Positions 5,229-8,916 of a stretch of DNA of 56,822 nt are shown piece after piece (within the stretch, counting starts at the first letter, position 1; the number at the start of each line of letters is the position of its first letter). The position numbers and the translations under genes are program-made. The notes under the pieces are model-generated. The model did no database searches. It was not told the DNA's origin and worked only from the letters and a program-made list of their open reading frames with translations. The DNA comes from Candidatus Gottesmanbacteria bacterium (GTDB lineage Bacteria; Patescibacteriota; Microgenomatia; UBA10105; UBA927): positions 1 through 56,822 of the forward strand of contig CAWEKC010000002.1 of assembly GCA_963809665.1 (NCBI GenBank), read 5' to 3'.

Positions 5229-5849
5229 ATGAACACCGAACGGGGCAGGCTCTATAACGTGGAAGGACTGGATGCGGCGGGAAAATCAACACTGGCTAAG
5301 GAATTACAGAAGAAATTTGACGGTGTTATGACATACAGCCCGCCGGACTGGATGAGACCGTACCGGACGTTTTCAACAACTCGCCAGCCGATATTCGGTT
5401 CCTGTATTATGCGTATAGTAATTTCTGGGTTGACAGGGTTATGGTACGTCCTCTTTTGGAACGTGACGGGAGATATGTATTCCAGGACCGGACATGGCTG
5501 ACGACGTTATCCGCACATGAAGATATGGGAACATCACGTATTCTGCTTCGGCTCGGATTAACAGCTCGCGAAAGCCGCAACCCGTCCCGATATCGCCTTT
5601 ATTATTCACGTTGATAACGCGGAAAGACGGCAGAGAATGATGAGCAGGAATGTGATTACCCCTGATGATATTACCAGTCTTGAAAACCAGGATGAAATGG
5701 AAAAAAGTCTGGTGTCATGGGTCGGTCGTCTCGGGTGGAAGACGGTTATCTTTGATAATTCGCACTTCACGCCCGATCAGGCGCGGGAGGAGTTAGTGCG
5801 GTATATCAGTGACAGAAATCTTAAAACGATCCCGGTAAAACCTCTTTGA
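5229..5849 (+). CDS. Nucleoside monophosphate kinase of the thymidylate kinase family, CMPK2-like (about 206 aa after fixing two compensating indels)
   Basis: P-loop EGLDAAGKST; SPP..MRPYRTFF..SP; DRTW motif in the shifted frame (5374-5560); RPD..FIIHV...ERRQR. One T is missing in TTTT 5370-5373 and there is one extra base near 5561. Confidence 0.8.
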
Positions 5850-6333
5850 TTGATATGTGTTGGGACTGACCCTTCGGTATATGGTATTCGACATTATCCC
5901 CTGCGTGCTTCCCCAGAAGCATCGTTCCTAACGGCGATTCATAGGAAATCCACCCCTGTTTGTTCTGAGACGCATCATCGGGGCCCAACAGGGTGAATGT
6001 TTCGTCTTCAGTCTCACCGGCAAACCTCACTGTAATCGTATTTCCGACGCCGATGGTATCTATTTGTTTGCGCGGCTCAATGATGGTCACGTCATAGAGC
6101 TTGTCTTTAATCTCGGAAAGCATCCGCGACGCCAGATCTGCCTGCCTCGATGCTTCTTCATACGCAAAGTTGTCATGGTATTCGTCGCCTTTCTCGATTG
6201 CCGCGCCCATTTCCAGCTGGAATCGTTTGTGTTGTTCCTGAAGCTGTGACAGCCGCTGCTCAAGGGCATCTTTGGTAAATTGCGTCATCAAACGGGATCC
6301 GGTACGGTTTTCCTGTTCAAATTTGTTATTCAT
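5821..6333 (-). CDS. greA: GreA/GreB-family transcript cleavage factor
   Basis: N-terminal coiled coil with acidic tip GDEYHDNFAY; C-terminal IS..SPLG..LLGK..GD motif; SD GGAGGG at 6339-6344; ATG at 6333 overlaps the PfkB stop. Confidence 0.85.
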   Translation of the reverse strand: MNNKFEQENRTGSRLMTQFTKDALEQRLSQLQEQHKRFQLEMGAAIEKGDEYHDNFAYEEASRQADLASRMLSEIKDKLYDVTIIEPRKQIDTIGVGNTITVRFAGETEDETFTLLGPDDASQNKQGWISYESPLGTMLLGKHAGDNVEYHIPKGQSQHISIKEVLPGSF

Positions 6334-7138
6334 AATCACCCTCCGATGTTATATGCTCCACGCCGAATGCCGAGACGGAAAGGGAAGCCAGGTTGACTGC
6401 CTTTTCCAGTGCGGTTTCCACAGGGACTCCTTTCGCACGCTGTGCTAAAAACGCACCGGCAAGTACGTCACCTGCGCCTGTAGTCTCAACGGAAGCAACA
6501 ACCGGCGCCGGTATCATTATTATATCGTTCCCGTGAATATATTCTGCACCGGATTTTCCTTTTTTAAGGACAATCGGTGTATCAAATACCGTCTCACCAA
6601 GCTCACGGACTATATTAAATTCCGCCTCGTTCGCAAATATCAACGAAGCTTTCCGGAACATCTGCTTTGTTAAATCCGGAAATTTTTCGACGAATTCCTC
6701 AAAACTATCAACGGAAACATGTGTATGGCCGGATAACATCTCCAGCCATGTTAAAGCATGTTCCGGCAATTGCGTCGGCAGATGGATAAATTTTGCAGAT
6801 ACATATGCATCAGGGAATATCGCTGTCTCTACAATCCCCGCCACGCCCCTTTGAGCCGCAAATTCTCTCGTATTATCCGGGTGCTGCGTTATAACAAACC
6901 TGCACGTTGCTCCGTTCTCCTTTATACGGATCCCTTCGATATCAATACCTTTCTGCGTAAGTACTGTTGTATCAAAATCCCTGCCGATCTTTGCCACCAC
7001 ACCCACTTTATCACTGTAGCGTGACGCCCCGACCGCAGCATAATACGCGGCCCCGCCGGGTGAAACTTTGCTTCCCGAGGGCGTAATGTCCTCATTCCAT
7101 GCAACATCGCCGATAATCGCAACATCCAGCTCTCTCAT
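6326..7138 (-). CDS. PfkB/ribokinase-family kinase (possible nucleoside kinase)
   Basis: PGGAAYYAA N-terminal motif, NEAE, and ETTGAGD anion-hole signature with the catalytic Asp; ATGA overlap with the RNR stop. Confidence 0.9.
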   Translation of the reverse strand: MRELDVAIIGDVAWNEDITPSGSKVSPGGAAYYAAVGASRYSDKVGVVAKIGRDFDTTVLTQKGIDIEGIRIKENGATCRFVITQHPDNTREFAAQRGVAGIVETAIFPDAYVSAKFIHLPTQLPEHALTWLEMLSGHTHVSVDSFEEFVEKFPDLTKQMFRKASLIFANEAEFNIVRELGETVFDTPIVLKKGKSGAEYIHGNDIIMIPAPVVASVETTGAGDVLAGAFLAQRAKGVPVETALEKAVNLASLSVSAFGVEHITSEGDYE

Positions 7139-8839
7139 AATTGTATTGGTTGGTTAATCTGACTTCCGTCCCTGTACACGGTAATGTTTTTTAATCCCAT
7201 GCCGTGCGCGTTGATAAAAATATCCAGAACATCCTGCACCGAAGCCGTTGACGGTAAATTCACTGTTTTGGAAACGGCTTCGTCATAGACGCTGCTTACT
7301 GCGGCAACCATTTTCAGCTGATCGATGGACTGATATCTCTTTAACTGTTTTAAGTACATCTTTGTCCGGGAGTGATCCGTTTTGAAACGTTCCACACGCC
7401 TGCGCCTGTTTCATGACACCGGAACTTTCATCGCCGGTCCTCTGCCGTACAAACGATTCTATGACTTTCCGGGTTTCATCGTTCAGTCTGTGCAAAGAAA
7501 ACAGCGGTTCTATGCTCGACGTTACTCCCAAAAGAATTGACGTCCTTCCTGTGGGTGGCAACGTCGTCGTCAATATATTTCTCAGGTATCCGGTATTCTT
7601 AATATACGCGGCGAACGATTCCCATGCCTCACGCGATACGGATTCAGTCGGATTGGCAGCATACCGGGACTCGATAAATCCGTTATAATATTTATTATTC
7701 TCCCGATCGGACATCGCACCGCACGACCCGCGATGCTCCGCCAGTCTCACTGATGCAACTTTCGATGAATAATTTATTGATGCAAGAATATTTTGCGCCG
7801 TTAGTCTTCCTTTGTCGGAATCGTAGGGTATTCCCAACTGAATAAGAGTATCCGCGAGTCCGCATACCCCGATACCGATTTTCCGTTTTAACGTTGCGAG
7901 ACGTTGACTCTCCTCATCGGGAAAGCCATTCCGGCTTATTTCTATTGCGTTATCAAGCGCTCTCACCATAACCGCCGTTGCCTCTGACAATTTTGTATAA
8001 TCCACTCCATCCTGTTTCACGAATTTTAACAGATTTATGTATCCGAATTGGCAGGTTTCTCCCGGGGCTAAACCCATCTCGGAACACGGAGGTGTTGACG
8101 TATATGAACTGATGGTTTTAATCGGATTATCCCTGTTCATCCGTTCCAAAGAAATAAGGCCCGGATCTCCGTTGTGATGCGCACACTGGGCCATTTCCTC
8201 CAATAATCCATAGGCATCTATATTTGTACCGTCCGACAATCTATATGATCTATGCTCCGTTGCGGATGCCATAAAGTCTTCGCTGACATCCACAGAAATA
8301 TTGAAGTGCTTCATGGATGAGTCTCTTTTCGCCCGGATAAACTCCCTGATCCGGGGATGGGAAACATGCAGGCTTCCCATATTGCCTATATACCTGTCAT
8401 ACAGTCCGGTTGCAGTTTCATTCGCTGAAAGTTCGTTTAACCAATGCAGGAGGCCGACGGGATCTTCGTATGATGTAAAATCAAATCCGGATCCCATATT
8501 TTGTCTGTAATACTTCCGTATTTTGACCGCTGCATCATCAAGTTTTCGTAAATCAACGGGTATTACGACGCAGGATGACAATGCGGCGTGAGAATATTCC
8601 GGTCTCCCTGCGTTGGTAAGCGTCGGTGTTCCGGGAGAAAGCGCACCTTCAAGCATATAACTGGCAAATAGGTCTTTGTTTCCCTGCGTTTCCCACTGAT
8701 CAATACCCCATGAAGATTCAACGGAAAACAGCGTGTGTACGACACGCTCAAACATATGCTGAGGTGTTTCTTCGGGGGCTAAAATTTTCCCTCCGGCTAA
8801 CATTTTAGTTACCCGTTGGGAAATTTCGAATTCTTTCAT
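7135..8839 (-). CDS. nrdJ: Divergent class II (B12-type, NrdJ-like) ribonucleotide reductase, about 567 aa after removing one extra base near 7327
   Basis: PTLTNAG, LSSC, NMG.L.V.HP.I.EFI.AK, FNISV, GDPG, PPCSE, ETC.FG.INL, RKIGIGVCGLAD, PTG..SI, SSIEP; C-terminal AVSKTVNLP and GLKNITVYRDGS. No class I Tyr-Tyr pair, no ATP cone. Confidence 0.85.
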
Positions 8840-8887: not shown

Positions 8888-8916
8888 ATAATACCTTCCA
8901 AACACAACTATGTCAA
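8888..8916 (-). promoter_or_regulatory. Near-consensus sigma70 promoter of the nrdJ-like/pfkB/gre operon
   Basis: TTGACA (8916-8911), 17-nt spacer, TATTAT (8893-8888), about 50 nt upstream of the ATG at 8839. Confidence 0.8.

Follow-up and report, generated by a model that had tools for sequence, protein, structure and literature searches.

Why should a gene of the Gre family, whose members are usually viewed as general housekeeping proofreaders, stand at the end of an operon of nucleotide enzymes? The question is raised by a gene of Candidatus Gottesmanbacteria bacterium (assembly GCA_963809665.1), located on a stretch of 56,822 nucleotides of contig CAWEKC010000002.1 (positions 1 to 56,822 of the forward strand), which is called the window throughout. 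As detailed below, its product carries at the tip of its coiled coil an invariant His-Asp-Asn (H-D-N) in place of the canonical Gre signature, and relatives with this tip, here collectively named HDN-Gre, occur repeatedly beside enzymes acting on nucleotides. The reading that we tentatively favour, with a probability of roughly 0.45, is that HDN-Gre works as a specialised transcript-cleavage or proofreading factor coupled to the handling of non-canonical nucleotides, as suggested by sequence comparison, by a predicted structure and by gene linkage.

The coding sequence of this HDN-type Gre-family protein spans 5821..6333 on the (-) strand, with the ATG at 6333-6331, the stop at 5823-5821 and 170 codons for a protein of 170 amino acids (aa); its identification is based on the translation, on a Pfam C-terminal domain and on the Gre fold of an AlphaFold2 (AF2) model. 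It is the terminal gene of an operon on the (-) strand that also comprises a gene resembling those of ribonucleotide reductases (RNR) and a PfkB-family kinase gene. Direct reading of the sequence shows a Shine-Dalgarno element, GGAGGG, at 6339..6344 (-), separated from the Gre ATG by the 5-nt spacer TGATT, and the stop TAA of PfkB is found at 6328-6326, so that the PfkB and Gre frames share 8 nt. The position as last gene, the Shine-Dalgarno element 5 nt from the ATG and the stop/start overlap had already been described in a first-pass annotation of this DNA, and all three hold, with the overlap now measured as 8 nt; the RNR-PfkB operon that it described is also there, but a frameshift in the RNR-like gene and a fourth gene, encoding a convergent kinase, had been overlooked. 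Judged by the Shine-Dalgarno element and the gene overlaps, Gre is translationally coupled to the operon. The protein itself matches PF01272, the GreA_GreB C-terminal domain, with 68.8 bits (cut-off 26.9), and it is under the cut-off of every NCBIfam GreA/GreB model. Both Rnk models likewise score below their cut-offs (NF004396, 40.3 bits vs 109, over residues 66-165; NF004548, 57.5 vs 126).

Could the gene simply be the housekeeping greA of this bacterium? The source genome (864 kb in 5 contigs, 98% complete) has three Gre-family genes. Canonical greA adjoins lysS, has the tip GDLSENSEY and scores 172.8 bits with NF001263, above the cut-off of 145. A second canonical-type paralogue lies on contig C1 (125926-126339, (+) strand), with the tip GDLSENGYY and a long branch in the tree; it falls below the GreA equivalog cut-off (116 bits vs 145). 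The first-pass annotation had left room for a second canonical greA in the genome, and this is what was found beside lysS, together with the other canonical-type paralogue; the window gene is therefore not a sole greA, and its linkage to RNR and PfkB is conserved in 4/4 close loci. By these profile scores and tips, the window Gre is not the housekeeping greA but a third, divergent, accessory copy. Two canonical-type Gre matches are also present in many relatives of the source genome.

Orthologues of the window gene are rare and patchily distributed. Eight other proteins were recovered as its orthologues by a word-indexed search of 5.8 billion sequences, and among 40 relatives an orthologue was present in two, namely one of six congeners and one more distant genome. 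When 401 Patescibacteria genomes were surveyed with an HDN profile, none of the 29 best loci outside the source genome held an HDN-type Gre: 25 showed the canonical GD..EN tip, one showed WHEN and three showed neither pattern (the overall tally of this survey, 317 of 401 genomes, counts one unpublished genome, and no specific claim rests on it). A FHDN string at one locus (L044) was set aside, being on the opposite strand and unrelated to HDN-Gre.

We then considered what distinguishes this accessory copy at the residue level. The coiled-coil tip reads GDEYHDNFAY (residues 49-58; 6160..6189, (-) strand), just as the first-pass annotation had given it, and H53, D54 and N55 are invariant in the subfamily. 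The one-residue insertion that had been proposed within this tip depends on the alignment: MAFFT and HMMER do introduce a gap there, but family-wide conservation favours an ungapped match, in which E51-x-x-D54-N55-x-x-Y58 corresponds to the canonical D-x-x-E-N-x-x-Y with Asp and Glu exchanged. Across the clade the tip takes the form [D/E]-[W/Y]-H-D-N-x-x-[Y/F], with Trp/Tyr-His where canonical Gre has Leu-Ser/Lys/Arg. Close orthologues and one 38%-identical relative share E51, H53, D54, N55 and A57 without exception, and an alignment of 43 sequences, 29-52% identical to the window Gre, leaves L24, H53, D54, N55, G97 and N98 as invariant columns. N55 does not vary; at position 58, the close clade has either Tyr or Phe, and beyond it Tyr, Phe or Leu predominate. 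The serine of the C-domain SPLG motif (S133-P-L-G) is invariant among close orthologues and nearly so in the wider HDN-Gre alignment.

To place these residues in a broader frame, 1.84 billion representatives were searched with HMMER, which returned 7255 matches at E <= 0.001, 47 of them at E <= 1e-30. Among the best 150 of the 7255, the H-D-N tip was found in 113, W-H-E-N in six and canonical D-x-x-E-N in five. The pattern [D/E]-x-H-D-N accounts for 86 of the 113; scored in this way, an acidic residue (Asp or Glu) occupies position 51 in 86 of the best 150. With the invariant D54 it forms an acidic pair at the canonical spacing. A tree of 133 rows was also built, comprising 62 HDN sequences, 28 further representatives, 41 GreA of the canonical type from Patescibacteria and both remaining paralogues of the source genome. 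In this tree, which comes from a quick search without bootstraps and is unrooted, a branch with 98% support in the Shimodaira-Hasegawa-like approximate likelihood ratio test (SH-aLRT) divides 46 canonical rows, both other source-genome paralogues included, from 87 HDN-like rows. By tip and tree, the window Gre belongs to a distinct HDN-tip clade, separate from canonical Gre. Relatives of this clade carry further tip variants (WHEN, WHDS, WHGN, HHNEA and HDD), which suggests a wider radiation of non-canonical Gre tips.

Such conservation bears on the simplest explanation of the locus, that is, that HDN-Gre is a redundant GreA duplicate adrift, whose linkage to nucleotide enzymes reflects the inheritance of one cassette. 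Rapid evolution is common among small proteins, many loci are interrelated and the partner genes in the window are decaying, all of which would suit a drifting duplicate. Nevertheless, the HDN tip, G97 and N98 have stayed invariant across the 43 sequences, which argues for purifying selection, and the partners, as described further on, recur in differing orders, strands and fusions, a pattern that a single inherited cassette would not yield. We regard drift as very improbable.

Is the protein then shaped to act inside RNA polymerase (RNAP)? In the AF2 model, obtained from a 10-sequence alignment with a predicted local distance difference test (pLDDT) of 83 and a predicted template modelling score (pTM) of 0.70, helices 18-47 and 53-79 are connected by a five-residue loop (48-52) and followed by a beta-rich C-domain. 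Foldseek returned RNAP-bound Gfh1 as the best match to this model (TMq 0.77), along with a GreA model (0.75), GreB (0.69) and GreA (0.69); Rnk (3bmb) reached a TMq of 0.38 over merely 97 columns. No solved structure was found within the HDN clade by sequence. Going by the model, the coiled coil of the window Gre is full-length and able to reach the RNAP active site like that of GreA, unlike that of Rnk. Some HDN-Gre proteins are longer, at 341-345 aa; their C-terminus is extended by roughly 175 aa, for which Pfam gave no match (e.g., L033:9959-10990).

The available text of PMC3132773 gives these residues a functional context: Gre of Mycobacterium tuberculosis requires the first Asp of its tip as well as the SPLG Ser, the latter for RNAP binding; the Asn and Tyr after the acidic pair contact backtracked RNA; and Rv3788, a non-cleaving homologue, keeps the acids and is missing the Asn and Tyr that follow. 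As HDN-Gre retains the acidic pair, the Asn, the aromatic residue, the SPLG Ser and a long coiled coil, it looks cleavage-competent on the basis of alignment and model, and with these cleavage-stimulation residues in place a proofreading role fits better than an inhibitor role. The latter would apply if HDN-Gre were a regulator or inhibitor of RNAP in the manner of Gfh1, Rv3788, archaeal TFS4 or DksA with guanosine tetraphosphate (ppGpp), slowing or reprogramming transcription from the secondary channel and maybe responding to a nucleotide made or destroyed by the kinase, NUDIX-methyltransferase or CYTH enzymes encoded beside it. Gfh1 and Rv3788 are described as inhibiting RNAP despite their retained acidic residues (PMC4598747, available text), the invariant His represents new chemistry at the tip, and among the four genes of the module Gre shows the lowest conservation in 6/6 pairs of the other loci, all compatible with regulation. 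On the other hand, HDN-Gre retains Asn55 and Tyr/Phe58, which the inhibitor Rv3788 lacks, and no conserved Lys or Arg that would suggest a nucleotide pocket occurs among the invariant or near-invariant columns of the 43-sequence alignment. Altogether, we consider a purely regulatory role rather unlikely. A coupling of transcription to nucleotide pools, the alternative given in the first-pass annotation, may apply just as well as the immunity proposed there.

The next question concerns the neighbours. The block formed by the RNR-like, PfkB, Gre and convergent kinase genes is present in 4/4 close orthologue loci (L029-L032), and these four genes are the sole gene content common to all five loci (the window and the other four); as for the flanks, upstream ftsZ is kept in two, downstream ileS is common to two, and two have neither. 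By gene content, the RNR-like gene, the kinase and Gre together are an accessory module. Farther away, a Daviesbacteria locus has a gene for phosphoribosyl pyrophosphate (PRPP) synthetase next to the series Gre, Tmk-like kinase, NUDIX/methyltransferase and CYTH, and another distant locus has the order GHMP kinase, methyltransferase and Gre, in the vicinity of which an AAA_18 kinase gene and two copies of Ham1 are found.

For a wider sample, scans for [DE]WHDN provided 80 loci from metagenomes and 3 from viral contigs, which with the six genome loci made 89, six of which were without an assignable Gre open reading frame (ORF); de-duplication at 90% identity led to 66 groups, which, being related, are not independent of each other. 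Within +-4 genes of HDN-Gre at these 66 loci, hidden Markov models (HMMs) that had been iterated and trained on the HDN loci themselves detected a Tmk-like kinase in 27 (23 of them at +-1), an S-adenosylmethionine (SAM)-methyltransferase in 20, NUDIX in 19 and CYTH in 10. One or more of these families occur at 40/66 loci, and at 26 of the 34 loci whose flanks measure 1.5 kb or more in both directions. When the same HMMs were applied to 45 canonical greA loci as controls (Patescibacteria only, with flanks of +-1.5 kb), the counts for kinase, NUDIX, methyltransferase and CYTH were 0, 1, 0 and 0. On these counts, the subfamily is linked to nucleotide enzymes across diverse metagenomic loci.

The arrangement of the partners varies. 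The commonest order is Gre, kinase and a NUDIX-methyltransferase fusion, sometimes with CYTH as well, and the fusions seen include kinase-methyltransferase, methyltransferase-kinase and NUDIX-methyltransferase-CYTH. Stand-alone NUDIX partners keep the NUDIX box, while fused NUDIX domains fail the strict box pattern, and ExExK is kept in 8/11 CYTH domains. CYTH domains encoded in the operons score as a CyaB-like class IV cyclase (TIGR00318, 101 bits, cut-off 58), which makes a signal nucleotide conceivable and to that extent favours a regulator; most CYTH proteins, however, are triphosphatases. In the clade nearest to that of the window (41-45% identity), the order is NUDIX, Gre, a variant radical SAM gene, a gene for a 368-aa protein and CYTH, with a kinase in addition. 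This variant radical SAM protein has 449 aa and matches NF045502 with 158 bits, with no match in Pfam and no sequence match in PDB. The 368-aa protein encoded after it is without a family match (L072:8531-10986; homologues at L078, L079 and L092). A complex prediction for HDN-Gre with the Tmk-like kinase gave a score of 0.12 (mark 0.32), which speaks neither for nor against an interaction.

A Pfam tally of the 148 nearest non-core neighbours yielded RNR 7, PfkB 4, AAA_18 4, UvrD 3, UDG 3 and NUDIX 3. The seven RNR barrel domains include three outside the window's clade. Two of the HDN-Gre loci contain another gene encoding a GreA_GreB C-terminal domain, no more than about 2.4 kb away. No description of the HDN clade or of its operon, or of a Gre linked to a Tmk-like kinase, a NUDIX-methyltransferase or CYTH, was found in the literature searched, the coverage of which leaves out most subscription journals; within that literature, a predicted Gre-family secondary-channel factor that combines a distinct conserved tip with a nucleotide-enzyme partnership appears to be previously undescribed.

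How could such a factor and such partners work together? For HDN-Gre, the fold, the tip residues, the clade and the linkage of genes are what the analysis shows, and from these we infer binding to RNAP, cleavage activity and a connection with non-canonical nucleotides. The coiled coil would reach the RNAP active site through the secondary channel, where the tip [D/E]-x-x-D-N-x-x-[Y/F] would promote hydrolysis of the 3' end in stalled or mis-extended transcripts, and the substituted Trp/Tyr together with the invariant His would alter what the tip handles. HDN-Gre would be co-expressed with enzymes of nucleotide salvage, modification and sanitising, here an RNR-like protein, PfkB and a Tmk-like nucleoside monophosphate (NMP) kinase, and elsewhere NUDIX, SAM-methyltransferase, CYTH, Ham1 and the variant radical SAM enzyme. 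The recurrence of these partners suggests the job itself, namely clearing non-canonical nucleotides from nascent RNA, and such nucleotides might originate from salvage or from the chemistry of the operon itself.

Several points weigh against this proposal. To begin with, the Pfam Gre N-terminal domain scores 20.9 bits, below its cut-off of 24.5, and the NCBIfam GreA models remain far below theirs (NF001263, 82.0 bits vs 145; TIGR01462, 90.6 vs 139). Cleavage could be altered or lost through the substituted His and Trp of the tip, and according to the available text of PMC4598747 the accessory Gre paralogues studied so far are mostly inhibitors that have acidic tip residues. Moreover, none of the four partner families was detected at 26/66 loci, many of them short, and the contrast with canonical greA is tempered by the training of the partner HMMs on the HDN loci and by the taxonomic and flank limits of the controls. 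A role for the methyltransferase fits poorly with a simple scheme of pool sanitising. Finally, two partner genes are broken in this genome, so that Gre is possibly a remnant here.

This last point calls for a closer look at the module in the window. Upstream of Gre, the PfkB-family kinase gene (6326..7138, (-) strand; 270 aa) matches Pfam PfkB with 97.9 bits; no NCBIfam equivalog scores above its cut-off, the best being ribose-1-phosphate kinase with 65 bits. Its start overlaps the stop of the RNR-like gene in the ATGA at 7138-7135. The accessory RNR-like gene itself (7135..8839, (-) strand), classified as class II NrdJ-like through Pfam and NCBIfam, is split into the ORFs 7283-8839 and 7135-7395, and tblastn comparison with intact orthologues of 566-600 aa indicates one frame change near 7335-7355. 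The housekeeping RNR is a separate gene on contig C1 (PF02867, 407 bits), and the two share only 25% identity. VNPCGEEG in the housekeeping enzyme corresponds to TPPCSEMG in the RNR-like sequence, in which Cys and Glu are kept and Pro stands for the preceding Asn. A promoter-like site, TTGACA-17-TATTAT (11/12), is located at 8888..8916 (-), where 115 bases separate ftsZ from the RNR-like gene; it is backed by its consensus match only, and in total such sites are no more numerous in the region than expected after shuffling.

On the other side of Gre, the convergent gene for a Tmk-like P-loop NMP kinase extends over approximately 5229..5849 on the (+) strand and contains two frameshifts, intact orthologues having 198-221 aa. 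The first frame change lies at a run of four T near 5372, where the orthologues would need five. Walker A, the DR motif and the lid arginines are conserved in the alignment of the kinase family, and its profile matches thymidylate kinases in PDB (best 2.8e-15); the source genome also has two ordinary thymidylate kinases elsewhere. The kinase gene at 5229-5849 is either a pseudogene or the product of an assembly error. A coding fraction of 0.94 and otherwise intact long genes in the window argue against a generally error-ridden assembly, although errors may still occur locally. Provided that the frameshifts are genuine, the module appears to be in partial decay in this genome, with the RNR-like and kinase genes frameshifted and PfkB and Gre still open.

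A different interpretation of the same neighbours is that HDN-Gre is the immunity component of an anti-phage or conflict system, in which the module would make a toxic or chain-terminating analogue, as viperins with their kinases do, and HDN-Gre would remove it again from the transcripts of the host. It is the strong form of the first-pass annotation, which saw in the gene a possible immunity factor against a toxic module. In PADLOC, the partner kinase does match the candidate PDC-M51B (1e-34, 1.9e-17) and VakA, and the stand-alone NUDIX matches PDC-S07; the variant radical SAM gene adjoins Gre in the sister clade; and both the patchy distribution and a genomic context that shifts between genomes would suit this interpretation. 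Furthermore, at one locus (L067, equal to L121) HDN-Gre adjoins a tyrosine integrase and a UvrD-like helicase, and at another, on an IMG/VR contig (L069, 683-7252), it adjoins an Eco57I-like type IIG restriction-modification enzyme and a PLD/SNF2 helicase. However, neither the window Gre nor a second HDN-Gre had a match in PADLOC-DB 2.0.0 at E <= 0.01, and at E <= 1e-10 the 148 nearest non-core neighbours yielded only 3 UvrD-type helicases and 3 dCTPase-like proteins, with no defence-island signal among them; their Pfam tally is one of ordinary nucleotide and DNA metabolism. A defence island, with Gre PADLOC-negative and its neighbours giving only these generic matches, was accordingly rejected as the main line.

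Mobile elements were also searched. A phage collection of 50,697 records gave no match, nor did HDN-Gre give one among plasmids with tblastn at 1e-10. The window Gre did match 44 plasmid records, all with less than 60% identity; among the 15 listed, the five annotated ones are greA, and one unannotated match, from Nonomuraea, shows GDLREN, a tip of the canonical type. The available text of PMC9503650 mentions a TPR-GreA/B-PIN conflict system, the architecture of which differs from that of the HDN-Gre operons. Overall, immunity seems quite unlikely to us. The earlier interpretation is partly supported: it is backed by the linkage to nucleotide enzymes and by the tip residues, but not directly in its claim of immunity.

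Specialised proofreading, as proposed above, could also be part of something larger. It is possible, if doubtful, that HDN-Gre, a Tmk-like kinase devoted to it and other nucleotide enzymes that vary from locus to locus (NUDIX-methyltransferase-CYTH fusions, the variant radical SAM enzyme, an RNR-like protein, PfkB and Ham1) constitute an undescribed system that makes or processes a modified nucleotide, with Gre either excising it from the cell's own transcripts as a form of self-immunity or letting RNAP use or sense it. If so, HDN-Gre would be the first Gre factor specialised for a particular nucleotide chemistry. The physiological roles of Gfh1, Rv3788 and Rnk are still not clear, and the HDN clade, with an invariant and chemically distinct tip and a recurrent operon partnership, offers a testable handle. 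If the link is real, it would connect the chemistry of the RNAP active site to the quality of the nucleotide pool or to modified nucleotides, which would be especially relevant to salvage-dependent bacteria with small genomes. It also brings a set of unstudied nucleotide-modifying operons to attention.

How, then, does HDN-Gre compare with systems already known? Viperins with NMP kinases, and PDC-M51, are similar in that a Tmk/CMPK-like kinase is linked to nucleotide-modifying enzymes, a linkage described for viperins in a preprint (bioRxiv 10.1101/2023.09.13.557418), the available text of which mentions no Gre-family partner. The HDN loci differ in having no viperin, the radical SAM protein of the sister clade being a variant type that goes unseen by Pfam. 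DksA with ppGpp, which provides the analogy for a regulator, is likewise a coiled-coil secondary-channel factor coupled to a nucleotide made by an enzyme; its globular domain is unrelated, and HDN-Gre is without a conserved basic pocket. Rnk, also of the Gre family, has a historical connection with a nucleotide kinase (PMC4598747, available text) and a similar C-domain (NF004396), but its short coiled coil cannot, according to the same text, reach the active site, whereas that of HDN-Gre is full-length in the model.

The nearest parallels are found within the Gre family itself. Gfh1 of Thermus/Deinococcus and Rv3788 are, like HDN-Gre, extra paralogues beside a canonical GreA with the tip acids kept, and among the structures matched to the window Gre, RNAP-bound Gfh1 comes closest. 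To our knowledge, no operon link to nucleotide kinases has been reported for Gfh1 or Rv3788. In addition, Rv3788, as described in the available text of PMC3132773, is without the Asn and Tyr that the HDN clade keeps. With GreA and GreB, HDN-Gre shares the acidic pair, the Asn, the aromatic tip residue and the SPLG serine; their tip is D-[L]-[S/K/R]-E-N, whereas that of HDN-Gre is [D/E]-[W/Y]-H-D-N, accompanied by the invariant N98 in the C-domain, and HDN-Gre is an accessory, patchily distributed protein tied to nucleotide enzymes rather than to housekeeping genes.

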